Assembly (NCBI GenBank): GCA_026390595.1
Contig: JAPLFQ010000019.1
Span: 41,860-105,859 of the forward strand
Length of the DNA stretch: 64,000 nucleotides
Direction of reading: 5' to 3'
DNA from: Ignavibacteriales bacterium
GTDB taxonomy: Bacteria > Bacteroidota > Ignavibacteria > UBA10030
Each line of letters starts with the position of its first letter. Positions within the stretch are counted from its first letter, which is position 1. Positions 1 through 49,271 of the stretch are shown here, piece by piece. The translations under genes were made by a program, and so were the position numbers. The notes beneath the pieces are model-generated. The model searched no databases. It was not told the DNA's origin and worked only from the letters and a program-made list of their open reading frames with translations.

Positions 1-573
1 GTAACGCTCTCAGGACCCGACGGATACGTGTACGACAAAGAAGGCGTGAAGGGGGAGAAAGTTGACTACATGCTTCAACTGCGCTCCAGCGCCAACGACC
101 GGGTGAAAGACTACGCGGACAAGTTCAAAGTCGAATTCTTCCCCGGCAAGAGACCCTGGGTTGTGAAAGCGGATGTCGCCTTGCCGTGCGCAACGCAGAA
201 CGAGCTGGACGTGGAAGACGCAAAAGAGCTGGTGAAAAACGGCTGCCTGTGTGTCTGTGAAGGCGCGAACATGCCGACGACAGTCGCCGCCATCAAGATC
301 CTTCTTGACGCGAAGGTGCTCTACTCGCCGGGCAAGGCATCGAACGCCGGCGGTGTTGCCACTTCGGGACTTGAAATGAGCCAGAACAGCATGCGCCTGC
401 CCTGGCCCAGGGAGGAAGTTGACCAGCGGTTGCATCAGATCATGAAGAACATTCACCGCACATGCCTTGAGACGGCCGAGAAGTACGGCACACCGGGCAA
501 CTATATGAACGGTGCGAACATTGCCGGCTTCCTCAAGGTGGCGGATGCGATGATGGACCAGGGATTGGTCTAG
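1..573 (+). CDS. gdhA: NADP-specific glutamate dehydrogenase, C-terminal fragment (5' end cut by window edge)
   Basis: Frame 1 is open from base 1. The translation ends ...EGANMPTT...GKASNAGGVATSGLEMSQNSMRL...GFLKVADAMMDQGLV, the canonical C-terminal NAD(P)-binding half of hexameric Glu/Leu/Phe/Val dehydrogenases. It is about 75% identical to the C-terminus of the 3948..5309 product. Confidence 0.9.
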   Translation, partial: VTLSGPDGYVYDKEGVKGEKVDYMLQLRSSANDRVKDYADKFKVEFFPGKRPWVVKADVALPCATQNELDVEDAKELVKNGCLCVCEGANMPTTVAAIKILLDAKVLYSPGKASNAGGVATSGLEMSQNSMRLPWPREEVDQRLHQIMKNIHRTCLETAEKYGTPGNYMNGANIAGFLKVADAMMDQGLV

Positions 574-794
574 CGCAGCAGCATGCAATCTGCGGGAAAC
601 ACCTGCAATGTCAGCAGGAGAGCGGTGTGACTCTCGAATGACCGCTCGCGGAGAAAAGGCGTACAACTCTTGGGTTCTTTCACAGCATTGACTGTATGAG
701 ACTCGTCCTAAGGGTCGTTACGCCTTTTCTTTTGTGGGGAGAACCGATCCGATGCCTCTCCGCCTACACAAACTGTATCGTTTAACCAGAGGTC

Positions 795-3794
795 ATGTTG
801 TTGTCAGCCATAAAAGCCTTGGACCCGATCAAGGGTCTTGACTATTTTGACACCCGCGTCAAGTCGTTTCAGAAACTGATGCGGTTCAAGATCCGGGACA
901 TCCTTCTTGTCTCGAGTCTGTACGACCAGTACCTCTTCGAAGAAGACGGCCGGCTCTATGAGCTCATCCGCCAGGAATTCCAGGCCCTCAACCTCAGTCA
1001 GACTCCCGACATCACTCACGTTACCAGCGGATCAGAGGCCGTCGAACTCGCTTTGACGGAGCAGCGCTTTGATCTCATCATCGCTACCCTGCACATCGAG
1101 GACATGCACGTCATCAAGTTTGCGAAGATGGCGCGTCAGGCAGGGATCAATGTTCCGATTATTTTGCTCGCGTATGACAACCGTGAGCGCAAGGAACTGG
1201 TGACGAATTATGACGCCTCGATTTTCGACCGTATTTTCATTTGGCAGGGGGATTATCATCTTCTGCTTGGTATTATCAAGTATGTCGAAGATCGGATGAA
1301 CGTCGAAAGCGACACGCAGGCGGTCGGAGTCCAGTCGATCATCCTCGTCGAAGACAACGTCAGTTTCTACTCCTCGTATCTCCCTGTCATCTACACGGAG
1401 ATCCTGAACCAATCCAAACGGCTGCTGTCGGAGGGGGTAAATCTCACACACAAGTTCCTCCGGATGCGGGCCCGCCCGAAGATTCTGCTCTGCACGACGT
1501 TTGAGGAAGCGTGGGCGTACTACGAAAAGTACCAGGATTTCATCCTTGGCATCATCTCCGATATCAACTTCAAGCGGGGCGGGGTCAAGGACCCGGAGGC
1601 CGGATTCACCTTTGCCAGGATGGTCCGTGAGCGGCACGAGGACATACCGATTCTTCTCCAGAGCAGCAATGCGGAATTCGCAGAACGGGCCCGGGAGATC
1701 GGAATCTCGTTCGTTCAGAAGACATCTCCGAGGTTGAGGCAGGAGCTGCGCGATTTCATGCTGAACAACTTCGGCTTTGGCGACTTTGTGTTCCGGACGC
1801 GCGATGGCAACGAGGTCGGCCGGGCTCACAACTTGAAAACGCTGGAAGAGCAACTTCACGTCGTGCCCGACGAGAGCATTCTCCTGCATGCCGAGCGCAA
1901 TCACTTTTCCAACTGGCTGAAAGCAAGGACGGAATTCTGGCTCGCCCACCGGCTGAGACCGCGAAAAATCACAGATTTTGATTCCATCGACGGCCTCAGG
2001 AATGAACTCATCAATTCACTGGGGTTTTACCGGGAAATTCAACAGCGGGGGGTGATCACCGAGTTTCACAAAGAATCGTACGATGTGAAGGGGAGTTTTG
2101 CGAGGATGGGCCTCGGTTCGCTGGGGGGGAAGGCGCGCGGGCTTGGATTCATCAACACCCTCATCACAAACTACCACATCGACCAGAAATTCGAAAACGT
2201 CGAAATCTCTGTCCCGTCGGCAGTCGTGATCGCGACGGATGTGTTTGACAGGTTTCTCGAGCGCAATGATCTTGAGCAGTTTGCACTGCATGCCACTGAT
2301 GATAATGAACTCAACAAGCGGTTCCTCGATGCGCCTCATTTCCCGGAGGATATCGTCCAGAAACTGACCGAATTCCTGGAGATTAATCACGAACCCCTTG
2401 CCGTCCGCTCGTCAAGCCTCTTGGAAGACTCACAATATCAGCCGTTCGCAGGAGTCTATGAAACGTTCATGATCCCGAACAACAACCCGGATCCTGCCAT
2501 CCGGCTCCGGGAGTTGCTTCAGAGCATCAAGCTTGTGTACGCTTCGACGTTCTCGCACAGCGCTAAAGACTACATGAAGGCAACCGCCTACCAGTTGGCG
2601 GAAGAGAAAATGGCGGTGATCATACAGCGCATGGTGGGGTCACGACACCACAACCGGTTCTATCCTGCCTTCGCTGGTGTCGCCAAGTCGTACAATTTCT
2701 ATCCGGTGCCTCCCCAGGATTCTTCCGATGGAATCGTCCATGTCGCTCTGGGTCTCGGAAAAATGGTCGTCGATGGCGGAAATGCAGTTCGTTTCTGCCC
2801 GAAGTATCCCCGACATCTCCTGCAGTTTTTCTCGACAACAGAAACGATCCGCAATGCGCAGCAGGAATTCCTTGCACTCGACCTGGATGGCGGCTTCGAT
2901 CACAAGCAGGATGAATCACCGGATGTCTTTGTGCAGCGGTATGACCTGAGCAAGGCGGAGGAAGACCAGACCTTGTTCTACGTCGGGTCCACCTACTCGT
3001 CGGAGAACGACTCGGTATACGACGGCGTGTCGCGGAGCGGCAAACGGGTCGTGACCTTTGCCCCCATCCTCAAACACAAGATATTCCCTCTTGCCGAGAT
3101 TCTTGAACTGATACTCGACATGGGCACGTGGGGCATGGGGACGCATGTGGAGATAGAGTTCGCCGTCAACATGAGTGTGCCCGACGGCAAGCCCAAGGAG
3201 TTTGCGCTCCTGCAAATCCGTCCGCTCGTCCTGAGTCTTGAGGCAGAAGAGCTGAATGTCGACAACATCGCGCAGGAAGATGTGATCTGTCAGAGCAGGC
3301 AGGTGCTCGGCAACGGGGCCATCACGAATCTGCATGACGTCGTCGTTGTTGATATCGACCGCTTCGATAGGGCGAAGAGCCGCGATGTGGCCACTGAGCT
3401 CAGCGCGATCAACGCAAAGCTCACGGGACTCAAGATCCCATACGTGCTCATCGGCGTTGGACGGTGGGGAAGCCTTGACCCTTGGCTGGGGATTCCCGTC
3501 ACGTGGGACCAGATCTCAGGTGCGAGTGTCATTGTGGAGTCAGGATTCAAGGATTTCAACGTCACACCTTCGCAGGGATCTCATTTCTTCCAGAATATCA
3601 CGTCGTTCCGGATTGGCTATTTCACGGTCAACTCGTTCAGCAATCTCGGGTTTATCGATTGGGATTGGCTTTCGAAACAGCCAGCCGTCGAGGAAATGTC
3701 ATATATTCGTCATCTTCGGTTTGAAGATCCGATTACCGTTCGGATCAACGGTCACAAAAACATGGGGATTATTCTCAAACCTAAGAAATCATGA
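795..3794 (+). CDS. Response-regulator/dikinase-like fusion protein: degenerate receiver + canonical receiver + PPDK_N-type PEP/pyruvate-binding (ATP-grasp) domain + swivel-His-like C-terminus
   Basis: 999-aa ORF. Residues ~30-150 have a receiver-like fold but a Thr where the phospho-acceptor Asp belongs (DLIIATLHIED). Residues ~180-300 form a canonical receiver (LVEDN ... ISDINF ... ILLQSS ... FVQK). The central region carries GGKARGLGFINT and SSSLLEDSQYQPFAGVYETF, motifs typical of the PEP synthase/PPDK N-terminal nucleotide-binding domain. The C-terminus carries PSQGSHFFQNITSF, resembling the GGRTSHAAI phospho-His swivel motif. Confidence 0.8.
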   Translation: MLLSAIKALDPIKGLDYFDTRVKSFQKLMRFKIRDILLVSSLYDQYLFEEDGRLYELIRQEFQALNLSQTPDITHVTSGSEAVELALTEQRFDLIIATLHIEDMHVIKFAKMARQAGINVPIILLAYDNRERKELVTNYDASIFDRIFIWQGDYHLLLGIIKYVEDRMNVESDTQAVGVQSIILVEDNVSFYSSYLPVIYTEILNQSKRLLSEGVNLTHKFLRMRARPKILLCTTFEEAWAYYEKYQDFILGIISDINFKRGGVKDPEAGFTFARMVRERHEDIPILLQSSNAEFAERAREIGISFVQKTSPRLRQELRDFMLNNFGFGDFVFRTRDGNEVGRAHNLKTLEEQLHVVPDESILLHAERNHFSNWLKARTEFWLAHRLRPRKITDFDSIDGLRNELINSLGFYREIQQRGVITEFHKESYDVKGSFARMGLGSLGGKARGLGFINTLITNYHIDQKFENVEISVPSAVVIATDVFDRFLERNDLEQFALHATDDNELNKRFLDAPHFPEDIVQKLTEFLEINHEPLAVRSSSLLEDSQYQPFAGVYETFMIPNNNPDPAIRLRELLQSIKLVYASTFSHSAKDYMKATAYQLAEEKMAVIIQRMVGSRHHNRFYPAFAGVAKSYNFYPVPPQDSSDGIVHVALGLGKMVVDGGNAVRFCPKYPRHLLQFFSTTETIRNAQQEFLALDLDGGFDHKQDESPDVFVQRYDLSKAEEDQTLFYVGSTYSSENDSVYDGVSRSGKRVVTFAPILKHKIFPLAEILELILDMGTWGMGTHVEIEFAVNMSVPDGKPKEFALLQIRPLVLSLEAEELNVDNIAQEDVICQSRQVLGNGAITNLHDVVVVDIDRFDRAKSRDVATELSAINAKLTGLKIPYVLIGVGRWGSLDPWLGIPVTWDQISGASVIVESGFKDFNVTPSQGSHFFQNITSFRIGYFTVNSFSNLGFIDWDWLSKQPAVEEMSYIRHLRFEDPITVRINGHKNMGIILKPKKS

Positions 3795-3947
3795 TTTGTC
3801 TGACGCAGTGGTTGGCGCTCTGATAATCGCTTCTTGAGAGTACATAATTCGTTTCGTTCGTTCTATCACCTAAGTCCTCGTTCCTCATATGCATTACCGT
3901 TGCATAGCAGGACAATCGCAATACCACACATCTATCAGGAGGGTTTT

Positions 3948-5309
3948 ATGTCTGATTATGTAAAAGATCTGATGGCTGAAGTAAAAGCGAAGAACCCGGC
4001 CCAGCCGGAGTTTCACCAGGCGGTTCAGGAGGTCGTGGAATCGCTCGCGTTGGTCTTTGAGAGGCATCCCGAATATCGCACGGCGAAGATACTTGAGCGC
4101 ATTATTGAACCTGAGCGAGTGATCACATTCCGCGTCGCGTGGGTTGACGATCAGGGCGAGGTGCAGATCAATCGCGGTTACAGAATTCAGATGAACAGCG
4201 CAATCGGACCCTACAAGGGAGGTCTGCGATTCCATCCTTCCGTGACTCTCGGCATATTGAAGTTCCTTGCCTTCGAGCAGGTATTCAAAAACAGTCTGAC
4301 GACGCTCCCGATGGGCGGCGGCAAAGGCGGATCGGATTTCGATCCAAAAGGGAAGAGCGATCTTAAAATCATGCGATTCTGCCAGGCTTTCATGTCGGAG
4401 CTGTTCCGGCATGTCGGACCCGAGACGGATGTCCCCGCAGGTGATATCGGAGTCGGCGGAAGAGAGATTGGATATTTGTTTGGCCAGTACAAGAAGCTTA
4501 GAAACGAATTCACCGGTGTCCTGACGGGGAAGGGTCTGAATTGGGGCGGTTCGCTCATTCGTCCCGAAGCCACGGGCTACGGCGCTGTGTATTTCGCGTC
4601 TGAAATGCTGACGACACGCGGGAAGACACTCGAAGGAAAAACGTGCCTCGTTTCCGGGAGCGGAAACGTTGCCCAGTACACGGTCGAGAAAATCAACCAA
4701 CTGGGAGGCAAGGCGGTAACGTTGTCAGATTCGAACGGCTATATCTATGATGAGGCCGGAATCACAAAGGAGAAGCTCGCGTACGTCATGGAGTTGAAGA
4801 ACGTCCGCCGCGGAAGGATCCAGGAGTACGCGGAGAAATTCAAGGGCTCAGTCTATACGCCGCTGGATGCGAAGATGGACAGCAATCCTCTCTGGAACCA
4901 CAAGGCGGATTGCGCCTTCCCGAGCGCGACGCAAAATGAGATCAACGGCAAGGATGCGCAGAACCTCATCCGGAACGGCGTGTATGTGGTCAGTGAGGGC
5001 GCGAACATGCCGACGACGATTGACGGCGTGAAACTGTTTCTCGACGCGAAGATCCTGTACGGTCCCGGCAAGGCCGCGAACGCAGGTGGTGTGGCCACAT
5101 CAGGGCTGGAAATGTCGCAGAATAGCATGCGCCTGTCCTGGACCCGCGAAGAAGTCGACAATCGTTTGCGCATGATCATGCACAGCATTCACTCGACCTG
5201 TGTGCAGAGCGCCGAGCGGTTCGGCACGCCGGGCAATTATGTCAACGGCGCCAATATCGGCGGTTTCCTGAAAGTTGCAGATGCAATGATGGATCAGGGA
5301 GTCGTGTAA
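3948..5309 (+). CDS. gdhA: NADP-specific glutamate dehydrogenase
   Basis: The ORF is 3834..5309; the likely start is the ATG at 3948 (MSDYVKDLMAEVKAK), preceded by AGGAGGG. Product length and motifs (GGGKGGSDFDPKGKS, TGKGLNWGGS, GSGNVAQY) are diagnostic of ~450-aa bacterial NADP-GDH. Confidence 0.93.
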   Translation: MSDYVKDLMAEVKAKNPAQPEFHQAVQEVVESLALVFERHPEYRTAKILERIIEPERVITFRVAWVDDQGEVQINRGYRIQMNSAIGPYKGGLRFHPSVTLGILKFLAFEQVFKNSLTTLPMGGGKGGSDFDPKGKSDLKIMRFCQAFMSELFRHVGPETDVPAGDIGVGGREIGYLFGQYKKLRNEFTGVLTGKGLNWGGSLIRPEATGYGAVYFASEMLTTRGKTLEGKTCLVSGSGNVAQYTVEKINQLGGKAVTLSDSNGYIYDEAGITKEKLAYVMELKNVRRGRIQEYAEKFKGSVYTPLDAKMDSNPLWNHKADCAFPSATQNEINGKDAQNLIRNGVYVVSEGANMPTTIDGVKLFLDAKILYGPGKAANAGGVATSGLEMSQNSMRLSWTREEVDNRLRMIMHSIHSTCVQSAERFGTPGNYVNGANIGGFLKVADAMMDQGVV

Positions 5310-5341
5310 CACCCTGTTTGCGGTAGAATGAACGTGACGAC

Positions 5342-5369
5342 GGAGAGGCGGAGATGCCTCCGTCTCTCC
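5342..5369 (+). other. GC-rich imperfect hairpin (about 12 bp stem, one G-U wobble) in the gdhA / second fusion-gene intergenic region; no U-tract
   Basis: ggagaggcggag-atg-cctccgtctctcc, seen directly. No poly-T follows, so it is not a canonical intrinsic terminator. Confidence 0.3.
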
Positions 5370-5498
5370 GGTAGTCTCCATACACCTATCTCGGAAACAG
5401 CTGTCGCAGGAACAGCAGTTTCACGCCTCGACGCATAGCCGCTGGCAATCTTCACCTATTTCCTTTCTTTGCGTCATGGGGCCTTCGCGTGACAGTCC

Positions 5499-8400
5499 TT
5501 GAGATACTTGGTATCACCTATTCCGACCGAGAGCTCCGTGAAGACAGAATTTGATGAGCTGAAATCTACCTCCGATACACTCTGGGTCGAGCACGGCTAC
5601 GGAGACCGCTTCCAGGGATTCCAGAATCTCATGCGGCTCCGGATTCGGGATGTCCTGCTGGTCTCGAGCCTCTATGATCTTTACCTCTTTGAAGAGGATG
5701 GAAGGCTCTACGAGCTCATCCGGAATGAATACCAGGGATTCAACCTCAGTCACTCACCCGAATTGACGCGCGTCTCCAGCGGATATGAGGCTCTCGCGCT
5801 TGCAAAGGAAGAGAGACGGTTTGACCTCATCATCACGACGCTCCATATCGACGACATGCACGCGATCGATTTCGCGCGCATGGTGAAGGAGGCGGGCATC
5901 AACATCCCGATTGTCCTGCTGACCCACGACAACCGGGAGCTCAAGTACCTGCTGATGAACCATGACACCTCGATGTTCGAGAAAGTGTTCATCTGGCAGG
6001 GGGATTTCCGCATCATTATCGCCATCATCAAGTCCATCGAAGACAAGATCAATGTCGACCATGACACGCGCATGGTCGGTGTGCAGACTATTATCGTCAT
6101 CGAAGACAGCGTCAAATACTATTCGTCGTTTCTCCCCAGTATCTACACAGAGATTCTGAAGCAGTCCCAGGCGCTCATTTCCGAAGGGATCAATCTGACG
6201 CATAAGTTTCTCCGGATGAGGGCGCGGCCGAAGATCCTCCTTTGCTCCACGTATGAGGAGGCTTGGGATTACTACGTTCGATACAGTGAATATATGCTGG
6301 GTATCATCTCGGACATTGATTTTCCCCGCGGCGGGGTGCAGGATCCGAGGGCCGGACTCGCGTTTGCCAGGGGAGTCAAGGATCGTCAGCCCGACCTGCC
6401 TATCCTTCTGCTGTCGAACATGCCGGAAAATGAGTCCCTGGCGCATGCCCGGGGTGCAGCGTTCCTTGTCAAAGACTCTCCGCTCCTGCTGAACGAGCTG
6501 AGAAAATTCATGATCCAGTACTTCAGCTTCGGTGATTTCGTATTCCGTACTCCGGAAGGGGTCGAAGTCGGGCGTGCGAATGACCTCAAGAGCCTCGAAG
6601 AACAGCTGACGATCGTCCCGGAGGCGAGCGTCCGGTATCACGCGGAGCGCAATCACTTCTCCAACTGGCTGAAGGCAAGAACGGAATTCTGGCTCGCCCA
6701 TCAGTTGAGGCCTCGAAAGGTCTCGGATTATGATACCGTTGAAGGACTGAGGCAGGATCTCATACGATCGCTCAACCACTACAGGAATATCCGTCAGCGC
6801 GGAATCATTGCGGACTTCGTCAAGGAGTCATTCGATCCGGCGAGCAGCTTTGCCCGCATCGGGGGCGGTTCGCTTGGTGGCAAGGCGAGGGGGCTGGGAT
6901 TTGTCAACACCTTGATCAACGACTACAAGGTCCGCAACCGGTTCGACAATGTGCAGATTTACGTCCCTGCAGCCGTGGTCATCGGCACGGATGTCTTCGA
7001 TGAGTTCCTGACCGACAACAATCTGCGGAAGTTCGCGATGAACTGCACGGACGACAAAGAGATTACAAAGAGGTTTGTCGAGGCGAGCAGGTTCCCGGAA
7101 GCAGTGCTGGGTGAGCTTGCGGCATTTCTGGACATCGTGCGTTCGCCCATCGCAGTCCGTTCTTCAAGCCTGCTGGAGGACTCTCAATACCATCCGTTTG
7201 CCGGGGTCTATGAAACGTACATGATCCCGAACAACAATCCGAATCCTCTCATCCGCCTCAACGATGTGATCAACAGCATCAAGCGGGTCTACGCGTCGAC
7301 CTTTTACCAGAGCGCGAAAGACTATATCAAGATTACGACGTACCGCCTTGAAGAAGAGAAGATGGCAGTAATCGTCCAGAGACTGGCAGGGTCGGAGCAT
7401 GAAAACCGCTTCTACCCGGATATTTCGGGCGTTGCGAAATCATACAACTTCTATCCGCTCGCTCCCCAGAAATCGTCCGATGGAATCGTCTCGGCGGCCC
7501 TCGGACTCGGGAAGACTGTAGTCGATGGCGGCAATACCGTCCGTTTCTGCCCCAAGTATCCAAACGACGTCATTCAATTCTATTCCGTCGAAGAAACCCT
7601 GAACAGTTCCCAGAAAGATTTCTTTGCGCTTCAATTGGACGCCCATTCGGATTTTGGATTTGAAACGCATGACGTCCACGTGCAGAAATATGGTCTGGAC
7701 GTCGCTGAGCGGGATGGCACGATGGCATACGTCGGGGCTACATACTCGCCGGAAAGTGACGTCATCACAGACGGTCTTGGAAGAAGCGGATCGCGCGTGG
7801 TGACGTTTGGACCGATCCTCCGCAACCGATCGCTCCATCTCCCCCAGATTCTTGAATTGTTGCTCGATATGGGGACATGGGGCATGGGAACGCCGGTGGA
7901 GATCGAATTCGCGATGGTTATGTCCGGACGCAATGCGGGTCCGAATGAATTCGCCTTGCTCCAAATGAGGCCGCTCGTCGTTCACAGGGAGCCGGAGGAG
8001 CTCAACGTGGAGGAATTCAAGCCGGCCCAGCTCATCTGCGAGAGCACTCAGGTTCTTGGGAACGGGCTGATCGAAGATATCCAGGATATTGTCTTTGTCG
8101 ACATCGAGTTGTTCGATCGTTCGCAATCGCGCGAAGTGGCAAAGGAAGTCAGTATTATGAACAGCCGGCTGATCGCTGAGCAGCGTCCGTATCTTCTGAT
8201 TGGAATCGGGCGCTGGGGATCCATGGATGACTGGCTGGGAATCCCGGTTACGTGGGAGCAGATCGCAGGTGCCCGTGCAATTGTCGAGACCGGGTTCCAG
8301 GAAATGTCTGTGGCCCCCTCGCAGGGCTCGCATTTCTTTCAGAACATCACCTCGTTCATGATAGGCTATTTTACAATCGATCCGCACAACAACAAAGGTC

Positions 8401-8549
8401 TTCTCGATTGGGATTGGCTGCTGAGCCAGAAACCAATCGAGAAGTTGAAGTTCACTAAACTCGTTCGATTTGAAAAACCTCTCGTTATCAAAATCAACGG
8501 CCACCAGAGCAAGGGAGTCATCTTGAAACCAGAGGCGGAGCATGACTAA
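5499..8549 (+). CDS. Paralog of 795..3794: degenerate receiver + canonical receiver + PPDK_N-type ATP-grasp + swivel-His-like domain
   Basis: 1016-aa ORF. The first codon is TTG (the GTG at 5538 is an alternative start). The domain order and motifs match copy 1 (GGKARGLGFVNT, SSSLLEDSQYHPFAGVYETY, ISDIDF, PSQGSHFFQNITSF). Long stretches are about 80% identical to copy 1 at the nucleotide level. Confidence 0.8.
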   Translation: MRYLVSPIPTESSVKTEFDELKSTSDTLWVEHGYGDRFQGFQNLMRLRIRDVLLVSSLYDLYLFEEDGRLYELIRNEYQGFNLSHSPELTRVSSGYEALALAKEERRFDLIITTLHIDDMHAIDFARMVKEAGINIPIVLLTHDNRELKYLLMNHDTSMFEKVFIWQGDFRIIIAIIKSIEDKINVDHDTRMVGVQTIIVIEDSVKYYSSFLPSIYTEILKQSQALISEGINLTHKFLRMRARPKILLCSTYEEAWDYYVRYSEYMLGIISDIDFPRGGVQDPRAGLAFARGVKDRQPDLPILLLSNMPENESLAHARGAAFLVKDSPLLLNELRKFMIQYFSFGDFVFRTPEGVEVGRANDLKSLEEQLTIVPEASVRYHAERNHFSNWLKARTEFWLAHQLRPRKVSDYDTVEGLRQDLIRSLNHYRNIRQRGIIADFVKESFDPASSFARIGGGSLGGKARGLGFVNTLINDYKVRNRFDNVQIYVPAAVVIGTDVFDEFLTDNNLRKFAMNCTDDKEITKRFVEASRFPEAVLGELAAFLDIVRSPIAVRSSSLLEDSQYHPFAGVYETYMIPNNNPNPLIRLNDVINSIKRVYASTFYQSAKDYIKITTYRLEEEKMAVIVQRLAGSEHENRFYPDISGVAKSYNFYPLAPQKSSDGIVSAALGLGKTVVDGGNTVRFCPKYPNDVIQFYSVEETLNSSQKDFFALQLDAHSDFGFETHDVHVQKYGLDVAERDGTMAYVGATYSPESDVITDGLGRSGSRVVTFGPILRNRSLHLPQILELLLDMGTWGMGTPVEIEFAMVMSGRNAGPNEFALLQMRPLVVHREPEELNVEEFKPAQLICESTQVLGNGLIEDIQDIVFVDIELFDRSQSREVAKEVSIMNSRLIAEQRPYLLIGIGRWGSMDDWLGIPVTWEQIAGARAIVETGFQEMSVAPSQGSHFFQNITSFMIGYFTIDPHNNKGLLDWDWLLSQKPIEKLKFTKLVRFEKPLVIKINGHQSKGVILKPEAEHD

Positions 8550-8754
8550 GACAAGTGGTCAATCGGGATCAAAAGCAGTTGATGTGTGCCCTCACTGCGG
8601 CGCCCATCTGAGCCCATGGCAGCAGGTGCTGCTGGGAGTTGATCGGGCCCTGATGTGCAGGAACTGTTGGTATCGGATCGTGATCGACGCGACCGACGAG
8701 GAGCAGGGGGGGAAGCCGGATGACACGTCACCATCGAAGGACGACAAGAAATGA
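8542..8754 (+). CDS. Small zinc-ribbon protein (CxxC...CxxC), translationally coupled between the fusion gene and GDH
   Basis: 70 aa: ...CPHCGAHLSPWQQVLLGVDRALMCRNCWYR... with an acidic/lysine-rich tail. Its ATG overlaps the stop of the upstream gene (ATGA), and its stop overlaps the ATG of the downstream GDH (ATGA). Confidence 0.6.
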   Translation: MTKTSGQSGSKAVDVCPHCGAHLSPWQQVLLGVDRALMCRNCWYRIVIDATDEEQGGKPDDTSPSKDDKK

Positions 8755-9998
8755 CATCCTATAATTCGTTTGGAGTCGAACAACAGCAGGTCCTCGAAGC
8801 TGCGAGGATCCTGAACCTGGACAAAGCGACGAGCGACCTGCTTCTTTGGCCGCAGCGCGAATTCAAATTCACCATGCCTGTCAAGATGGACAACGGCGAG
8901 GTGAAGATCTTCCACGGATACAGGATACAATACAACTATGCCCGTGGTCCGGCGAAGGGAGGAATTCGCTTCCACCCGGACGAGACGGTCGATACCATCC
9001 GGGCTCTCGCGGGATGGATGACGTGGAAAACGGCCGTGCTTGATCTGCCGCTCGGCGGCGGAAAGGGGGGCGTGGTCTGCGATCCAAGGCATATGTCGGA
9101 TCGTGAACTCGAAAACGTGGCACGCGGGTATGTGCGGGCAGTGGCCCCGCATATTGGAGTCGACAAGGATATTCCGGCCCCTGACGTATATACGAATCCA
9201 CAGACGATGGCGTGGATGATGGATGAGTATGAGACGATTCTCAATATTCATCAGCCCGGCGTACTGACGGATAAACCGATGCAGATCGGGGGAACAGAAG
9301 GACGACGTGACGCCACGGCGCGCGGAGGTGTCATCAGCGTGAGGGAGGCATGCAAGGTGCTCGGCGTCGATCCGCATGGGGCGTTCGCGATCCAGGGCTT
9401 CGGCAATGCCGGCCAGAGGGCTGCATTGTTACACCAGGAGCTGCTGGGCGGCGGGAAGCTGGTCGCGGTCTGCGATTCGCGGGGAGGCATTTCCAATGTC
9501 GATGGCTTGAATCCCAAGGAACTCGTCATGCATAAGCTCAAGACCGGTTCTGTTGTCGGATTTCCGGGAGCGAAGTCCATCCCGCGCGACTCCATCGTCG
9601 AACTTGACGTACAGGTCCTGTATCCGGCGGCGCTGGAAAACTCCATCAATGATGAAAACGCGGCTTCTATCAAAGCTCGAATCATTTGTGAGTTGGCTAA
9701 TGGCCCGACCACGCCGGAGGCTGATCTTATCCTGCACGAAAAAGGAGTGCACGTGATCCCGGATATCCTCGCAAGCGCGGGAGGAGTTACGGTCTCCTAT
9801 TTTGAGATGGTTCAGGACAAGTATTCGTACTTCTGGGACGAGAAAACCGTCCATCAGCGGCTCGACGAGAAAATTTCGAGGGCGTACCTGACCGTGCAGG
9901 AGGCGATCAAGGAGAAGAAAGTCCATCCGCGCCTTGCAGCGATGGTGGTGAGTGTTGCCCGTGTTGCAGAAGCGTGTAAGCTTCGGGGATGGGTTTAG
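8751..9998 (+). CDS. gdh: Glutamate dehydrogenase, short (~415 aa) Glu/Leu/Phe/Val dehydrogenase class
   Basis: KGGIRFHPDETVDTIRALAGWMTWKTAVLDLPLGGGKGGV, QGFGNAGQ and the C-terminal GPTTPEAD...ILASAGGVTVSYFE are canonical GDH motifs of the ~415-aa subclass. Confidence 0.9.
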   Translation: MTSYNSFGVEQQQVLEAARILNLDKATSDLLLWPQREFKFTMPVKMDNGEVKIFHGYRIQYNYARGPAKGGIRFHPDETVDTIRALAGWMTWKTAVLDLPLGGGKGGVVCDPRHMSDRELENVARGYVRAVAPHIGVDKDIPAPDVYTNPQTMAWMMDEYETILNIHQPGVLTDKPMQIGGTEGRRDATARGGVISVREACKVLGVDPHGAFAIQGFGNAGQRAALLHQELLGGGKLVAVCDSRGGISNVDGLNPKELVMHKLKTGSVVGFPGAKSIPRDSIVELDVQVLYPAALENSINDENAASIKARIICELANGPTTPEADLILHEKGVHVIPDILASAGGVTVSYFEMVQDKYSYFWDEKTVHQRLDEKISRAYLTVQEAIKEKKVHPRLAAMVVSVARVAEACKLRGWV

Positions 9999-11376: not shown

Positions 11377-11566
11377 AGACCCGTTGCTCCCCAAAGGACT
11401 TCTGCGTTCAATAATCGAATGTTCGACATTCGAAATTCCCCAGATCATCAGAACCAGTGAATGCTCAACACCGATCAAGGAATGTTGAATGATGAAGTTG
11501 TTTGACCGTCACCCGAGCTTGACCAGACCCCTTGTTCATTCACAAATCTCCTCCCGGAGGATTTCC

Positions 11567-13591
11567 ATGAGACGTATCGCCATCCTATGTGCTGTCCTGA
11601 TTCCGATTGTTCTCGTCCACGCGCAGACGAAACACTCCATCCTGTTTGATGAATTTATCAGCCTCGGCCGGGTCACCGACCCTCAGGTTTCTCCTGACGG
11701 AAGAACCGTCGCGTTCGTCGTGACCTACCAGAACAAGCTGGAGAACAAGTCGAACAGCAATATCTACCTTGTCCCGGTCGATGGAGGATCAGTCCAACAG
11801 CTCACAAATGCGAAGGGGGCGAACAATACGCCACGCTGGCTGCCTGACGGCAAATCACTCGCCTTTGTATCTACCCGCGACGGAGAAGCCCAGATCTGGG
11901 TTGTTCCGGCGACCGGAGGCGAGGCACGCAAGGTATCGACCATATCCACGGGAGCATCAGACCTGCAGGTTTCCCCCGACGGCATGTGGTTTGCCTTCTC
12001 CTCAACGGTGTATCCGGATTGCCCAAACGATGACTGCAACAAGACGCGGATGGAAGAAGCGGAAAAGAGCAAAGTGAAGGCAAAGATCTTCGACAAACTT
12101 CCATATCGGGTCTGGAATTCGTGGAAAGACGGGATGCGCAGTCACTTGTTCGTTATCGCGTCGGCCGGTGGAGAGGCGAAAGACATCACGCCGGGAGACT
12201 TCGATTCTCCGCCGATCGATCTGGGAGGCAACTGGTCCTATGCCTGGTCCCCGGACAGCAAGGAAATCGCGTTTGAGAGGAATACGGATCGGGACATTGC
12301 CATCAGCACCAACAACGACATTTTCGTTGTCCCGGTTACGGGCGGAGACGCAAGGAAGATCACTGACAACGCCGGCAACGATTCCCAGCCCCTGTATTCG
12401 CCCGACGGCAGGTATATCGCATATCTTCAGATGAAACGGGCTGGTTTCGAAGCCGATCAAAAGCAGTTGGTTCTCTACGAGCGTTCTACAGGCAAGAGGA
12501 CAAACCTAACCGAAATGTTCGACTACAGTCTCAATGACGTGGTCTGGTCTCCGGATTCAAAGGTCATCTATTTCAATGCCGATGACAAGAGCAACGAGTC
12601 CATCTTCAGAATGACCATCGCCGGAAAGAAGATCGAGTCACTTCTCGGGAAAGGCTACAACCATGATCTGAGGATGCAAGCCGGAGGGAAGTCGCTCGTG
12701 TTTTCACGCGAATCTATCAACCAGCCTGTGGAGATATACCGGATCGATGCGGATGGGAAGAACATGAAGAACATCACGGGGATCAATGACAGCAAGCTCG
12801 GCCCGATTGAGATGAATCCGAAGGAGGATTTCTGGTTTGAAGGAGCCGGCGGCACAAAAGTGCACGGGTTCCTGGTGAAGCCCCCGGCGTTCGATGCCTC
12901 GAAAAAGTATCCCATGATCTTCCTGATCCACGGCGGACCTCAGGGACAATGGGGTGACCAGTTCCACTACCGTTGGAACGCCCAGATGTTTGCATCACGC
13001 GGCTACGTTGCCGTCTTGATCAATCCGCGCGGAAGCACGGGGTACGGACAGCAGTTCACCGACGAGATAAGCCGGGACTGGGGAGGGAAAGCGTACGAAG
13101 ACCTGATGAAGGGGCTCGACCACGTACTGAAAACCTGTCCATTCATCGATGGGAAGCGCATGGCCGCTGCAGGCGCATCGTACGGCGGTTACATGATCAA
13201 CTGGATCGAAGGGCACACAGACCGGTTCCGCTGCCTGGTGTCACACGATGGCGTCTTCAATCCGAAAAGCATGTACGGGACCACGGAAGAACTCTGGTTC
13301 CCGGAATGGGAGCTTGGCGGTTCACCGTACAAGAACCCTGAGCTGTATGACAAATGGTCGCCGATGGCGTTTGTCAATCAGTTCAAGACTCCCATGCTCG
13401 TTGTTCACGGGCAGATGGATTTCAGGCTGGACGTCAGTGAAGGTTTCCAGTTGTTCACCGCACTGCAGCGGCAGGGCATCAAGTCGAAGATGTTGTATTT
13501 CCCTGACGAGGGGCACTTTGTCGCAAAGCCTGCTAATGCCGAACTTTGGTACAAGACGGTGCTGGACTGGATTGACGAGAATACGAAGTAG
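11567..13591 (+). CDS. S9 family serine peptidase (acylaminoacyl-peptidase/DPP-like) with N-terminal TolB-like beta-propeller
   Basis: The ORF is 11489..13591. The probable start is 11567, with GGAGG upstream and a signal peptide (MRRIAILCAVLIPIVLVHA). Repeated SPDG propeller blades are followed by the S9 nucleophile motif GASYGGYM and HGQMDFRL. Confidence 0.85.
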   Translation: MRRIAILCAVLIPIVLVHAQTKHSILFDEFISLGRVTDPQVSPDGRTVAFVVTYQNKLENKSNSNIYLVPVDGGSVQQLTNAKGANNTPRWLPDGKSLAFVSTRDGEAQIWVVPATGGEARKVSTISTGASDLQVSPDGMWFAFSSTVYPDCPNDDCNKTRMEEAEKSKVKAKIFDKLPYRVWNSWKDGMRSHLFVIASAGGEAKDITPGDFDSPPIDLGGNWSYAWSPDSKEIAFERNTDRDIAISTNNDIFVVPVTGGDARKITDNAGNDSQPLYSPDGRYIAYLQMKRAGFEADQKQLVLYERSTGKRTNLTEMFDYSLNDVVWSPDSKVIYFNADDKSNESIFRMTIAGKKIESLLGKGYNHDLRMQAGGKSLVFSRESINQPVEIYRIDADGKNMKNITGINDSKLGPIEMNPKEDFWFEGAGGTKVHGFLVKPPAFDASKKYPMIFLIHGGPQGQWGDQFHYRWNAQMFASRGYVAVLINPRGSTGYGQQFTDEISRDWGGKAYEDLMKGLDHVLKTCPFIDGKRMAAAGASYGGYMINWIEGHTDRFRCLVSHDGVFNPKSMYGTTEELWFPEWELGGSPYKNPELYDKWSPMAFVNQFKTPMLVVHGQMDFRLDVSEGFQLFTALQRQGIKSKMLYFPDEGHFVAKPANAELWYKTVLDWIDENTK

Positions 13592-13651
13592 CAGGGTATT
13601 CGCTGGTATCTGTCTGCAGTAGTCTGCGTTCTGTCTGCTCGTGTACATAAG

Positions 13652-13683
13652 AAAGCCGCTGCGACTCCAGCCGCAACGGCTTT
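13652..13683. terminator. Bidirectional stem-loop terminator between convergent genes
   Basis: aaagccgctgcg-actccag-ccgcaacggcttt, a 12-bp stem with one mismatch. It is flanked by T/A-rich sequence and sits between the + gene ending at 13591 and the - gene ending at 13726. Confidence 0.5.
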
Positions 13684-13725
13684 CCTTCTTCCCACAACCA
13701 TCCCGGTTGTCCAGGACGGTGTTTC

Positions 13726-14133
13726 TCAGATGTTCTCTTGCTGTTGGTACTCCTGATAGAACAATGCGCAGAGTTTCCGCACGCGATCGTTGCCGTCCAG
13801 CCGGCCTGTCTGCTTGACCGCATAGATACCGACAGGGTCACCGATCTTGATAAGAGCCAGGGCCGCAACTATTCTGCCGCGCTCGTCGGTCTCATTTCTC
13901 AGCATCTGCATCAGGGCAAAGACCCCATTGGGACTTTTGATGTCACCCAGCATATTTGCTGCGCTGACACGCAATCCAAAATTGCTCGAATTTACTCCGA
14001 TGACCAGGTTGGCTTCCACTACTTCCATCTGAAAAGCTGGTTTGCTCACTTGTTTGTCTGTGCGAGCAAAAGCAGACGTCGTGAGGGCCACGGCGAGCAC
14101 GAGGGCCAAAGTGACCAATACCGACCGTTTCAT
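13726..14133 (-). CDS. Small secreted HEAT-repeat-like protein (hypothetical)
   Basis: 135 aa with an N-terminal signal peptide (MKRSVLVTLALVLAVALTTSAFA) and HEAT/PBS-lyase-like repeats (RIVAALALIKIGDPVGIYAV). It is the only convincing minus-strand gene in this region. Confidence 0.55.
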   Translation of the reverse strand: MKRSVLVTLALVLAVALTTSAFARTDKQVSKPAFQMEVVEANLVIGVNSSNFGLRVSAANMLGDIKSPNGVFALMQMLRNETDERGRIVAALALIKIGDPVGIYAVKQTGRLDGNDRVRKLCALFYQEYQQQENI

Positions 14134-14499
14134 AATTCCTCCGGGTTAATGGGTTGTGGGAAAGAATGTGAATCTGTCGCTTCTGGTCCCAGGTTCTTCA
14201 GAATCTCATGGCCTGGTCCAATCAATCTGTCTTCTTCCCCTAAGACGCTCTTCGGTCGTAGGAGTTGGAAGCCTGTGACGAATGAGCCTTCCCTTGGGAT
14301 GAGTGACGCGTCGACACGGGGGAGATGCTGTTCTGAAGGGAATACCGGGGTTACTTTGGCTGCGAATTACGCTCTGCAGGGATGGCTGACCCGTGCCGAT
14401 GTGATCAATTGACATTCAATTCTCCATCCCATACATTATCTGGCGTTAGCGAGCCCTTCACCAACCATTTCGGCCCGCCTAGGGAGGCACTCGAATTCC

Positions 14500-16608
14500 A
14501 TGAAAACCTTCATATCCATAGCCATTTTTTGCGCCATGATCGATCAATCAACTCAGGCTCAATCCAGCTCAACCTCCTTGACGCCTCCGGCAGCGAAAAG
14601 AATCGCCAGGGTGGATACGATCCACAACGATGTCCGGATCGACAACTATTACTGGCTCAGGGACAAAGAGAACCCGGAGGTTATCGCATACCTTGACGCG
14701 GAAAACCGCTATACGGAGGCGATGACGAAGAACATCGAAGGGTTTGAGCAGACGTTGTATAAGGAGATTCTCGGTCGGATCAAACAAACCGATTTGAGCG
14801 TCCCGTACTTATTGGGAGGATATTGGTACTATAGCCGCGTGGAGGAAGGGAAGCAGTACTCCATTTATTGCAGGAAGAAGGGTTCGATGGAGAGCCCTGA
14901 GGAGATTACGCTCGATCTTAATGAACTGGCGAAAGGCCACAAATTCCTCGGACTCGGCCTCTACGAAGTGAGCGATGATGGGAACCTCCTCATCTATTCA
15001 CTCGATACCACGGGCTTCAGGCAGTATCAATGCGGAGTCAAGGATCTGAAGACTGGCAGAATTCTTCCTGACGCTATCGGTCAGGTGAACGGGGCGGTGT
15101 GGTCAGCCGATAACAAGACCTTCTTCTATACGAAGGAAGATGCAGCGAAGCGCCCGTATCATCTGTATCGCCATGAACTCGGTGCAACGCATGACGAAAT
15201 GTTGTACGAGGAAAAGGACGAACTCTATCGGGTGGGAGTCGATCGATCGAGCGATCGGAAATACGTGTTCTTCATCGCGGGGAGCTCCATCACCGATGAG
15301 GTCCATTATCTGGCCAGCGATCAGCCCCGGGGGAAATTCACAACCCTGTACGCACGCGAAGAGGGGCACGAGATGAGCGTGGATCATCGCGAGGGCCTCT
15401 TCTATATCCGGACGAACAAAGGCGCGAAGAACTATCGCCTTGTCACGGTTTCCGACTCCGATCCTCGTCAGGAACTCTGGAAGGAACTCCTGCCTCACCG
15501 TCCGAACGTGAAGCTTGAATCAACCACGCTCTTTCGCAACCACGCTGTCTTTGTCGAGCGCGAGCAGGCCCTCATCAGGTTTGTGACTCATGATTTTCGG
15601 ACTGGCAAGAACTCAAACGTCTCCTTTCCTGAGCCGGTGTATTCTGCCGGGCCCGGGGCAAACCCTGAGTATGATTCCAGAGTCTTTCGATACAACTACC
15701 AGTCGTTCGTAACGCCAAGCTCTGTGTACGATTTTGACATGGAGACCGGGAAGAGCACGTTGCTTAAGCAAACGGAAGTCCTGGGCGGATATGACCCGAA
15801 ACTGTATGTGTCTGAGCGGGTCTACGCGAAGGCTGCAGACGGGGCGATGGTGCCCCTGTCGATTGTCTATCGGGCTGGAATGAAACGCGACGGATCAAAC
15901 CCGCTTGTACTGTACGGCTACGGCGCCTACGGATTCTCGCAATCTGCATCGTTCTCCGTGGTGCGTGTCAGTCTCCTGGATCGGGGAGTGGTCTACGCTC
16001 TCGCGCACATCCGCGGGGGAGGAGATCTCGGCGAGCAATGGAGGGACAATGGCAAGATGTTGAACAAAAAGAACACATTCACCGATTTCATTGCCTGCGC
16101 TGAGTATCTCATCCGGGAGAAATACACGTCGCCCGCGCATCTCGCAATTCAGGGCGGGAGTGCCGGCGGTCTGCTCATCGGTGCCGTGGTGAACATGCGC
16201 CCCGATCTCTTTAAGGTCGCTCACCTTGCTGTGCCGTTCGTCGACGTCGTCAACACGATGCTCGATGAAACGCTCCCGTTAACCGTTCCGGAATTCCTCG
16301 AGTGGGGCAATCCGAAGAAGAAGGACGAGTATGAGTACATGAAGTCGTACTGTCCCTACACCAATGTCGAGGCGAAGGCATATCCGGCCATGCTCATTAC
16401 GACATCGCTCAATGATAGCCAGGTGATGTACTGGGAGCCTGCGAAGTATACCGCGAAAATGCGAGTGACCCGGACGGACAAGAATCCTTTGCTGCTCAAG
16501 GTCAATATGGGAGCCGGGCACGGAGGTGCATCGGGCCGGTACGACGCATACAAAGAACAAGCCTTCAATTTCGCGGTGATCCTGGCGCAGCTCGGCATTA
16601 CGAAGTAG
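14500..16608 (+). CDS. S9A prolyl oligopeptidase family peptidase (oligopeptidase B/protease II-like)
   Basis: 702 aa with a signal peptide, an N-terminal propeller, then YGYGAYG, GGSAGGLL (GGSxGG nucleophile) and a C-terminal HGG, which is classic S9A. Confidence 0.88.
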   Translation: MKTFISIAIFCAMIDQSTQAQSSSTSLTPPAAKRIARVDTIHNDVRIDNYYWLRDKENPEVIAYLDAENRYTEAMTKNIEGFEQTLYKEILGRIKQTDLSVPYLLGGYWYYSRVEEGKQYSIYCRKKGSMESPEEITLDLNELAKGHKFLGLGLYEVSDDGNLLIYSLDTTGFRQYQCGVKDLKTGRILPDAIGQVNGAVWSADNKTFFYTKEDAAKRPYHLYRHELGATHDEMLYEEKDELYRVGVDRSSDRKYVFFIAGSSITDEVHYLASDQPRGKFTTLYAREEGHEMSVDHREGLFYIRTNKGAKNYRLVTVSDSDPRQELWKELLPHRPNVKLESTTLFRNHAVFVEREQALIRFVTHDFRTGKNSNVSFPEPVYSAGPGANPEYDSRVFRYNYQSFVTPSSVYDFDMETGKSTLLKQTEVLGGYDPKLYVSERVYAKAADGAMVPLSIVYRAGMKRDGSNPLVLYGYGAYGFSQSASFSVVRVSLLDRGVVYALAHIRGGGDLGEQWRDNGKMLNKKNTFTDFIACAEYLIREKYTSPAHLAIQGGSAGGLLIGAVVNMRPDLFKVAHLAVPFVDVVNTMLDETLPLTVPEFLEWGNPKKKDEYEYMKSYCPYTNVEAKAYPAMLITTSLNDSQVMYWEPAKYTAKMRVTRTDKNPLLLKVNMGAGHGGASGRYDAYKEQAFNFAVILAQLGITK

Positions 16609-16666
16609 CGGGCGGATACAGAGAATTCTTTCACAGAGACACTCACATACACTGAACGGAGGGACT

Positions 16667-17176
16667 ATGCAGCCCACGCAAATGCAGCCACCGGTTCCAC
16701 CCCCTATGCGGCCAGTTGTACAGTATGCGGGATTCTGGCGAAGATTCGTCGCCCATCTCATCGATCAGGTGATTGTTGGCTTCATCGCACTCGTGCTGTT
16801 CCTTCCGGCTCTTGCGATGTTTGGCATCGGGGTCGGGGCAGGGATGATGGATGAGGATTTCAGCGCCGTCGGTTTTGTCATTGCTGTGATCGCAGCGTAT
16901 CTCGTGGCGATCCTCGCTGTCATGATCCTGGCCTGGCTCTACTTTGCCCTGATGGAGTCCTCGGCAAAACAAGCTACTCTTGAGAAGCTCGCTCTGGGAA
17001 TCGTCGTGACCGATCTCTCCGGCAACCGGATATCATTTGGGAGGGCGACAGGTCGATATTTTGGGAAGATCGTTTCCAGCATGATTCTCAGCATCGGATA
17101 CATCATGGCAGCCTTCACGGAGAAGAAACAGGCACTGCACGATATCATGGCCAGTTGCCTGGTGGTGATGAAATAG
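16667..17176 (+). CDS. RDD family membrane protein
   Basis: The Pro-rich N-terminus is followed by WRRFVAHLIDQVIV (RDD motif) and three TM segments. Confidence 0.7.
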   Translation: MQPTQMQPPVPPPMRPVVQYAGFWRRFVAHLIDQVIVGFIALVLFLPALAMFGIGVGAGMMDEDFSAVGFVIAVIAAYLVAILAVMILAWLYFALMESSAKQATLEKLALGIVVTDLSGNRISFGRATGRYFGKIVSSMILSIGYIMAAFTEKKQALHDIMASCLVVMK

Positions 17177-17225
17177 GCCTCGAACGTCATCATTCGATCA
17201 AACAAAAAACCAAGGAGCGTACCAT

Positions 17226-19109: not shown

Positions 19110-19421
19110 GGGCGGCAGACGCGGGGTTAGGACGACTCATCGTGTGTGATGGGGCTCAATATCGCATCGCATTCTCCCTTTGGTTGAGCGTAATGCGAGA
19201 GACGACAATTGATCTCCTTTGACCGTGTCAGAATTTCCGATCGCGGTAAAAATGTCCGGAACCATGACCGGAGCGCTTTTGATGATGTCACTATCTAAAG
19301 GATATTGACCGCACCATCTCATACCGCTATGGGGCATAGATATTGAATATCTGGGAGCAGCGGATTCCGCATCCTGATGATGGGGAGTACGATTCTTGTG
19401 TACATCCCGGAGAGATAACCC

Positions 19422-19808
19422 ATGGGTCAACAGCAGCTTCTGCTTGTCATTCTCGGCGTGATCATCGTTGGCTTTGCCATTGCCATCGGTATCAGTCTCT
19501 TCGGTGCCCAATCGGTCTCATCGAACCGTGATGCTATGATCAATGATATCAACCATCTCTCGATGGTCGCGTATCAATTTCGAATCAGCCTTCGCTCGAT
19601 GGGTGGTGGTGAAGGTGACTTCAGCACGTTCGTCATTCCTCTGCAAATGAAAAGCAACAGCAATGGACTGTATTCCGTCACCAACGCACAGGTCAATACG
19701 CTGACATTCAAAGCGACGTCAGCAAATGACGCCTCGAACACGATTACTGTCACGGTTGACAGCAACGGCAGGCTTGGCAGTCTGACCTTCGGAGGAGATT
19801 TCCAGTAA
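19422..19808 (+). CDS. Hypothetical membrane-anchored small protein (pilin-like topology)
   Basis: 128 aa with an N-terminal hydrophobic helix (LLLVILGVIIVGFAIAIGISLF) followed by a Ser/Thr/Asn-rich beta-like region. No canonical prepilin cleavage motif was found. Confidence 0.45.
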   Translation: MGQQQLLLVILGVIIVGFAIAIGISLFGAQSVSSNRDAMINDINHLSMVAYQFRISLRSMGGGEGDFSTFVIPLQMKSNSNGLYSVTNAQVNTLTFKATSANDASNTITVTVDSNGRLGSLTFGGDFQ

Positions 19809-20075
19809 CACCCTTATTGTTTTTCTCACCACGGCGCCCGGTTCGAGATTCGCGTGTTTCATGCGAAACGATGTTCGGGCGTTTCTCTTTGCTGGCTTTC
19901 CATCGTCCCCGCTTGTTCCTCCCCCTCGTTCAACACCGTCGTCCGATGTGAGTGCTGCACGCACGTTCGGGCCTTGAACTTTCCTTTGCCATTTCCCTTA
20001 TCGTTCTCTATATTGGTCGCGATCACTCACCCCTCGTAGGCCAGCTTATTTCTACCAACATCGAGGCCACACCGC

Positions 20076-22127: not shown

Positions 22128-22169
22128 ATTTGATACAGCAGCCTAATCTCTGAATTGAGGAACCTCCTT

Positions 22170-25149: not shown

Positions 25150-25204
25150 GTGAACGATATGACTTCGTTTCTTGTTTTACCCAGAGGTTTATAAGGAGAT
25201 AGAT

Positions 25205-30103: not shown

Positions 30104-30175
30104 GCTGAAGTAGCTCAGTGGTAGAGCAGCGGTTTCGTAAACCGCAGGTCGTGGGTTCAACTCCCACCTTCAGCT
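30104..30175 (+). tRNA. tRNA-Thr (anticodon CGU)
   Basis: The sequence folds into a cloverleaf by eye. Acceptor gctgaag/cttcagc; D-arm gctc-agtggta-gagc; anticodon arm gcggt-ttCGTaa-accgc; variable loop aggtc; T-arm gtggg-ttcaact-cccac. CCA is not encoded. Confidence 0.9.

Positions 30176-47016: not shown

Positions 47017-49271
<2,255 letters not shown>

Follow-up and report, generated by a model that had tools for sequence, protein, structure and literature searches.

Receiver-containing dikinase-like fusion proteins encoded beside glutamate dehydrogenase genes in an Ignavibacteriales genome and its relatives

This report concerns a cluster of six genes at the start of a 64,000-nucleotide stretch of Ignavibacteriales bacterium DNA (contig JAPLFQ010000019.1, positions 41,860 to 105,859; hereafter the window, with positions counted from its first letter). 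The genes are co-directional on the plus strand and fill positions 1-9998 in the order gdhA', fusion 1, gdhA, fusion 2, a zinc-ribbon gene and gdh415, exactly as the original prediction, made from the sequence alone, had placed them. We tentatively propose that each of the two fusion proteins, of about 1000 amino acids (aa), is a receiver-gated "minimal dikinase" regulating the glutamate dehydrogenase (GDH) whose gene precedes its own; we infer both the target and the chemistry. The proposal is built on the recurrence of this gene pairing in distant genomes and on the conservation of the catalytic residues of the fusions. We found neither the family nor its link to GDH described in the literature, where subscription journals were thinly covered; this is absence of evidence, and within that limit it agrees with the earlier statement that no such regulatory system has been described.

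Linkage of the fusion family to glutamate dehydrogenase

The family is large. One search contained at least 8000 of its sequences among the matches, and in a library clustered at 50% identity 5328 representative clusters match at E<=1e-3, of which 1316 still match at E<=1e-30, the best ones being mostly full-length. Its named members belong to Ignavibacteria, Bacteroidales, Kiritimatiellia and Caldisericia, and one to a Heimdallarchaeota metagenome-assembled genome; the databases label them only as "PEP/pyruvate-binding domain-containing protein" (PEP, phosphoenolpyruvate) or "CheY-like".

A GDH gene lies directly upstream of the fusion 1 orthologue in about 57 of 80 Ignavibacteria-group genome loci, many of which carry the complete six-gene array. 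An independent metagenome scan seeded with family-wide motifs yielded loci 43-75% identical, and those with 1.5 kb or more of sequence upstream were taken as informative. GDH stands directly upstream on the same strand in 34 of these 57 loci (60%) and somewhere upstream in 38. By identity band, the direct-upstream counts are 12 of 14 (>=60%), 17 of 30 (50-60%) and 5 of 13 (40-50%). We estimate that a random gene would have GDH directly upstream about 0.1% of the time, and the arrangement at 34 of 57 loci is therefore far beyond chance.

Seven distant representatives were looked up individually, and five of them are GDH-linked. P0160 (41% identical) has an adjoining divergent GDH gene; P0260 from Caldisericia (33% identical) has GDH on both sides, with a second PPDK_N gene in between; P0135 has GDH upstream; and a Kiritimatiellia member has a partial GDH gene at the contig end. 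The fifth, a 1557-aa Bacteroidales form (L091 7001-11674) with an N-terminal extension of about 560 aa that has no Pfam match, is divergent from a GDH-fusion operon. The claim that the fusions are genetically locked to GDH is thus upheld by the neighbourhood survey, and more broadly than the window itself shows.

Loci without GDH have no other recurrent neighbour, the largest neighbour cluster being a phosphofructokinase at 5 loci; for this reason the basic unit is "GDH then fusion", and the window holds two such units and one zinc-ribbon/GDH pair. The phosphofructokinase, of 400 aa, stands beside or near the family member in a GDH-less paralogue group of Ignavibacteria (for example, L012 6463-7665 and, on the minus strand, L020 6559-7761) and is inconsistent elsewhere. 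The full-length homologue of Heimdallarchaeota LC_3 (OLS23807.1; L090 7001-10042; 43% identical) is not linked to GDH; its neighbours are an M28 peptidase gene and receiver-GTPase fusion genes.

In the window, gdhA' (1-573, stop TAG at 571-573) is represented by the last 190 codons of a hexameric-type GDH of about 446 aa, its 5' end lying beyond the window start. It is followed by fusion 1 (795-3794, 999 aa), gdhA (3948-5309, 453 aa from the best start, ATG 3948), fusion 2 (5499-8549, 1016 aa from a TTG start, the exact start being uncertain), the zinc-ribbon gene (8542-8754, 70 aa) and gdh415 (8751-9998, 415 aa). The fusion 2 stop and the zinc-ribbon gene overlap by 8 nucleotides, ATGACTAA (8542-8549), and the zinc-ribbon gene and gdh415 by the 4-nucleotide ATGA (8751-8754); the ATGA overlap once ascribed to all three genes holds for the latter junction only. 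The overlapping stop and start codons suggest joint action of the three products. The zinc-ribbon protein gives weak Zn_ribbon matches in Pfam; its pattern CPHCG-x17-C(K/R)xCWYRI is invariant in 29 loci, and the gene is always found between fusion 2 and gdh415. Since the whole array recurs in many Ignavibacteria, with fusion 1 orthologues 65-93% identical, the duplication is old rather than recent. A recent tandem duplication or an assembly artefact is ruled out by the conservation of the array down to 65% identity.

All three GDHs have the ELFV_dehydrog_N and ELFV_dehydrog domains, are closely similar to solved GDHs and belong to the ELFV family; Pfam and NCBIfam thus confirm three GDH genes within 10 kb, one of them of the type with about 415 aa. 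gdhA' matches ELFV_dehydrog with 217 bits, and its full-length orthologue (L002:6437-7774) is nearest to the NAD-specific clostridial enzymes 1bgv and 1hrd (617 bits for C. symbiosum 1bgv). gdhA, an NADP-type GDH, scores 762 bits with NF006929 (NADP-GDH, cut-off 536) and is nearest to the NADP-specific structures 5gud, 5ijz and 3sbo. gdh415 scores 536 bits with NF040817, under the cut-off of 750; its nearest solved structures are 1bvu, 1gtm and 1euz, and it resembles the archaeal, Thermococcus/Pyrococcus type. Because each of the three is nearest to a different GDH type, the cluster probably encodes three different isoenzymes, and gdhA' is probably not of the NADP type. The original prediction had two NADP-type gdhA genes about 75% identical; the assignment stands for gdhA, and the identity is corrected to 59% over the 190 aa of gdhA' that the window contains and to 66-72% for full-length orthologous gdhA'/gdhA pairs.

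The two GDH genes of about 450 aa are each followed by a stable RNA structure. After gdhA' there is a very stable stem-loop with a U-rich run at its end (645-738; minimum free energy -42.7 kcal/mol, z-score -4.3), and after gdhA a GC-rich hairpin of 13 bp (5336-5376; -30.3 kcal/mol, z-score -4.6); none of 200 shuffles was as stable in either case. The former is possibly a partial terminator or a stabiliser setting the GDH-to-fusion expression ratio. Structure is common in 114 related GDH-to-fusion spacers as well (median z-score -2.6, a rough figure obtained with mononucleotide shuffles), and the hairpins fit an expression pattern of high enzyme and low regulator. The spacer before gdhA (3795-3947) is AT-richer (44% GC) and unstructured, being less stable than all 200 of its shuffles (z-score +2.8); it probably holds the promoter of the second module. 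A scan for sigma-70 promoters and terminators was uninformative, the host promoter type being possibly different and outside its coverage. Rfam showed no riboswitch at the GDH cluster; its single match in the 64 kb is a tRNA at 30104-30175.

Domains of the fusion proteins and their relatives

Fusions 1 and 2 are 62% identical over 980 aa and share a five-part layout, in which a pseudo-receiver and a receiver are followed by a helical linker, a PPDK_N ATP-grasp domain and a C-terminal domain of 170 aa. The succession of pseudo-receiver, canonical receiver and PPDK_N had been proposed before, and it is supported by Pfam matches and by conserved residues. Here and below, conservation is counted per column in an alignment of 120 diverse members of the family, which share 33-82% identity with fusion 1, and positions refer to fusion 1 unless stated otherwise. 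The landmark residues of fusion 2 are D272 (6312-6314), K462 (6882-6884) and His945 (8331-8333).

The ATP-grasp domain (2118-3275, aa 442-827) is recognised by PPDK_N (PF01326) with 137 bits in fusion 1 and 127 bits in fusion 2, so that the similarity expected for the central domain is present in a profile search, together with the catalytic residues. Its motifs GGK446, R538-S-S-S, E544-D545, E786xE788 and Q807xR809 are 93-100% conserved; we take them to correspond to the ATP- and Mg-binding residues of PPDK and PEP synthase. Such conservation of catalytic motifs argues for a working enzyme rather than a relic. A profile search of the PDB matched rifampin phosphotransferase (5hv6/5fbs) over aa 466-613, tblastn matched E. 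coli PpsA (26% over aa 443-661), and the best partial matches in NCBIfam were PigC, RedH, PEP synthase and rifampin phosphotransferase.

Response_reg gives 32-33 bits in each fusion, just over the Pfam cut-off of 30.2. In fusion 1 the match (32.1 bits, aa 63-145, profile positions 16-95) falls within the first domain (882-1304, aa 30-170). We regard this domain as a pseudo-receiver, although it passes the cut-off, because the acceptor Asp is replaced: fusion 1 has Thr98 (codon 1086-1088), and the family column is Met in 51% and Thr in 19% of members. A (beta-alpha)5 pattern is visible in it in a low-confidence full-length model (predicted local distance difference test, pLDDT, 54). The second domain (1326-1754, aa 178-320) matches the profile weakly, with 15.5 bits, in a register that places D256 (codon 1560-1562) near profile position 51 and K309 near 100. 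Its residues E186/D187, D256, S290 and K309 are conserved in 95/86/90/91/94% of members, respectively, which identifies it as a receiver. The linker (1770-2114, aa 326-440) has the motifs GFGDFVFR and HAxRNHFSxWLxAR and an invariant W374; its resemblance to DUF5752 (PF19027) is weak, 16-21 bits and below the cut-off, which is passed, with 24.7 bits, in the 1557-aa Bacteroidales relative.

The C-terminal domain (3282-3791, aa 830-999) has the motifs GxGRWG(S/T)xD and PSQG(S/T)HFF and a candidate phospho-acceptor, His930 (codon 3582-3584), which is 97% conserved. Its model, obtained from an alignment of 47 sequences, is very confident (pLDDT 94.9) and runs from a strand (YVLIGV) through a loop (GRWGSxDPWLGIPV), a short helix, a strand (ASVIVES) and a loop (PSQGS) to a helix starting at His930. 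This order parallels the one around the catalytic His of PEP synthase. A swivelling beta/beta/alpha fold is a well-supported prediction of the model. At the sequence level, the last 180 aa have no Pfam match even at E<=10, PF00391 included; the 47-sequence profile matched none of the PDB chains; and hhalign gave a probability below 1% against the swivel domains of E. coli PpsA, PtsI, PtsP and FryA, and against a four-sequence swivel alignment it paired the LGIP motifs and nothing more. A Foldseek search of the model against the PDB also gave no significant match. The swivel of the original prediction thus survives as a predicted fold; a resemblance of the His region to PF00391 or to solved swivel domains is not detected by any of these sequence methods. 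Kinship with the phospho-His domain is the best, though putative, reading of these data.

The fusions would work like dikinases of the PEP synthase/PPDK/rifampin-phosphotransferase kind, outside those families. They share with PEP synthase and PPDK a PPDK_N ATP-grasp domain with all catalytic motifs; the domain after it is predicted to have the swivelling beta/beta/alpha fold of the phospho-His carrier, with a conserved His at a helix start. They differ in having no PEP/pyruvate TIM barrel (PF02896) detectable by Pfam, since the polypeptide ends after the 170-aa domain; in a His domain unrecognisable by sequence; in the two receiver-type domains and the linker added at the N-terminus; and in reaching 50-70 bits in NCBIfam, where the cut-offs are 600-880. 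The missing barrel rules out an identity as PEP synthase or PPDK in the strict sense. Rifampin phosphotransferase and the PigC/RedH enzymes likewise have an ATP-grasp and then a C-terminal His domain without the pyruvate barrel, and they give the best partial matches (5hv6/5fbs; PigC 64 bits). However, they carry a substrate-binding domain of about 400 aa between the two modules, have no receiver and act on small molecules, whereas the modules of the fusions are directly joined, the ATP-grasp ending at aa 827 and the C-terminal domain starting at about aa 830. The corresponding NCBIfam scores (37-64 bits against cut-offs of 999-1350) come from matches confined to aa 465-617, and the fusions do not belong to these families; every NCBIfam cut-off is missed by an order of magnitude.

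A second PPDK_N family, without receivers and 27-28% identical, has the same C-terminal motifs (GPGRWGSRGD, SFGTHFFQD) and adjoins short-type GDH genes, sometimes with 4-nucleotide overlaps (L157 8964-11765; L135 88-3270, minus strand; L086 8930-11233; L151 1910-4636). Because this family is also GDH-adjacent, it is the core of ATP-grasp and His domain, not the receiver, that tracks GDH. Two of its members end in a further domain, an NTP_transf_2 nucleotidyltransferase of the minimal, protein-modifying type.

In about 18 Ignavibacteria loci (L033 10957-13709, L097 5542-8294 and about 16 others), fusion 1 and gdhA are separated by an insertion that encodes a soluble PAS-PAS-HisKA_3(-HATPase) kinase, a 193-aa protein and a NarL/GerE-type regulator. 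The start of the kinase gene and the stop of fusion 1 overlap, indicating translational coupling. The insertion supports an ordinary two-component input to the fusions and makes two-component control more plausible. This control had been part of the original prediction; it is sustained by the receiver residues (86-95% kept) and by the coupled kinase of the related loci, and is not sustained by any such kinase in the window.

Proposed mechanism and its alternatives

On the mechanism that we propose, the ATP-grasp domain would bind ATP and phosphorylate a conserved His, namely His930 of fusion 1 and His945 of fusion 2. The swivel-fold domain would then pass the phosphoryl group on to a target at the GDH node; the likeliest candidate is the partner GDH or an adaptor such as the zinc-ribbon protein. 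The transfer would turn the GDH isoenzyme on or off. A histidine kinase would set the activity by phosphorylating the receiver Asp (D256/D272), and the pseudo-receiver might mediate dimerisation or act as an adaptor, like its counterpart in PleD-type regulators. These also place one phosphorylatable and one degenerate receiver before an enzymatic output, and a similar logic of phosphorylation-driven dimerisation or activation is probable; the order of true and pseudo-receiver is reversed in the fusions, and their output is a dikinase-type module. For a peptide degrader, the result could be separate post-translational control of a catabolic NAD-, an anabolic NADP- and a third GDH, by which a futile transhydrogenase cycle would be avoided.

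Two further analogies may be drawn. GlnE/GlnD and, for actinobacterial GDH, PknG-GarA/OdhI exemplify signal-dependent post-translational control by a large dedicated protein, and some GDH-linked relatives of the fusions carry a nucleotidyltransferase; the chemistry and folds are different, so that the analogy is one of role and not of homology, and modification of GDH by the fusions is hypothetical. Enzyme I-Ntr (PtsP) of the nitrogen phosphotransferase system (PTS) acts in nitrogen sensing and has a swivel-type phospho-His domain that hands phosphate on to a protein; there the donor is PEP via a TIM barrel and the sensor is a GAF domain, whereas the fusions have ATP as the putative donor via the ATP-grasp and a receiver as the sensor.

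The strongest form of the proposal is that the fusions are the first ATP-grasp/phospho-His "protein dikinases", which would covalently phosphorylate GDH or a bound adaptor under two-component control and so provide every GDH isoenzyme with a switch of its own. This would amount to a widespread and so far unrecognised post-translational layer of nitrogen and amino-acid metabolism in Ignavibacteria, Bacteroidales, Caldisericia, Kiritimatiellia and others; we consider this form possible and rather doubtful. Several points weigh against the proposed mechanism. About 40% of family members, including the Heimdallarchaeota one, are not GDH-adjacent, which means that GDH is not the sole target unless these members act in trans. 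We know of no ATP-grasp dikinase that phosphorylates a protein. Neither a substrate-binding domain nor a phosphatase partner was identified, and nothing in the window matches the kinase embedded in the related clusters. The full-length AlphaFold2 model, built on a shallow alignment, is poor (pLDDT 54) and of no use for judging how the His is placed relative to the ATP site.

The fusions could instead phosphorylate or activate a metabolite at the glutamate/2-oxoglutarate node, which GDH would supply or consume, with the receiver gating the flux. To our knowledge, all characterised barrel-less enzymes with an ATP-grasp and a His domain act on non-protein acceptors: rifampin phosphotransferase, PigC, glucan water dikinase and phenylphosphate synthase act on hydroxyl-bearing small molecules or glucans. 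The best NCBIfam partial matches (PigC, RedH, PEP synthase and rifampin phosphotransferase) fit this reading, the neighbouring genes belong to amino-acid and peptide catabolism, and a ligand might bind to the linker at aa 326-440, which has the invariant Trp. Yet the receiver-less family has no such linker and is still GDH-linked, Pfam finds nothing resembling a known substrate-binding domain, and no other pathway enzyme consistently co-occurs; nor do we know of a phosphorylated derivative of glutamate or 2-oxoglutarate that requires a dikinase. We consider this explanation unlikely, with an appreciable chance nonetheless. A quite unlikely one is that the fusion is a non-covalent allosteric partner and energy sensor, which binds the GDH hexamer as a regulatory subunit, its ATP-grasp sensing ATP/AMP and its receiver the kinase input. 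A nucleotide-sensing GDH partner has a precedent, since Thermus GDH is reportedly regulated by a homologue of adenine phosphoribosyltransferase; translational coupling of fusion 2 with the zinc-ribbon gene and gdh415 and the failure to find a target-binding or phosphatase partner would also agree with it. Binding alone would not, however, need the near-invariant catalytic ATP-grasp residues and the His motif, and the hairpins after the GDH genes suggest sub-stoichiometric expression of the fusions.

Since a putative phospho-His-generating module and an intact receiver share one polypeptide, the module might also be an unorthodox histidine kinase for its own receiver Asp, the phosphorylated fusion modulating GDH non-covalently. 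The window, with no match to the kinase embedded elsewhere, would suit such a relay, and one homologue is labelled "histidine kinase" by NCBI. The receiver-less relatives weaken the idea of a module existing only to phosphorylate its own receiver: they are GDH-linked, so that the core function needs no receiver. The related loci, about 18 in number, have a conventional PAS-HisKA_3 kinase coupled to fusion 1, and we know of no precedent for a self-contained ATP-grasp His-to-Asp relay. We give it a smaller probability still. Very improbable is synteny without a functional link, with the fusions regulating something else and merely travelling with GDH genes. It would account for the family members away from GDH, and the window offers no direct functional evidence to the contrary; but the pairing persists from 33% to 93% identity, in at least four phyla, in rearranged orders (co-directional, divergent, doubled) and with two GDH classes, and drift would not preserve such pairings.

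Surrounding genes and significance

Directly 3' of gdh415 there is an esterase gene (PF00756; 10126-11376) with an N-terminal CBM20 starch-binding domain, an unusual combination. Just beyond the GDH cluster, five peptidase genes on the plus strand occupy 11489-24182 and encode a Dpp5-like S9 peptidase, a prolyl oligopeptidase, an S15 X-Pro dipeptidyl peptidase and M28 and M1 peptidases; this run points to a peptide-catabolic lifestyle. The window further includes genes for a class I fumarase (25172-26728), a KatG-like peroxidase (47076-49271), a B12-dependent methionine synthase (49701-53288) and a protein with a type IX secretion system sorting tail (61391-62740). The surrounding genes are consistent with an ordinary Bacteroidota/Ignavibacteria chromosome. 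There is no sign of a defence system or a mobile element, the context being chromosomal housekeeping and peptidase genes.

Carbon and nitrogen metabolism meet at GDH, whose post-translational control is poorly understood in most bacteria. A large uncharacterised family, with its dikinase and receiver residues intact and its genes linked to GDH across phyla, is a candidate for such control. We did not find a dikinase-type module described as the output of response regulators, and it would widen their repertoire; if the target is the GDH protein, dikinase chemistry would be extended from small molecules to proteins, which would be categorically new. The proposal lends itself to direct tests, as the proteins are soluble and relatives in Ignavibacterium and Melioribacter are in culture. 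We believe that the pairing of GDH and fusion genes is probably the sign of a hitherto unknown mode of control over an enzyme central to nitrogen metabolism.

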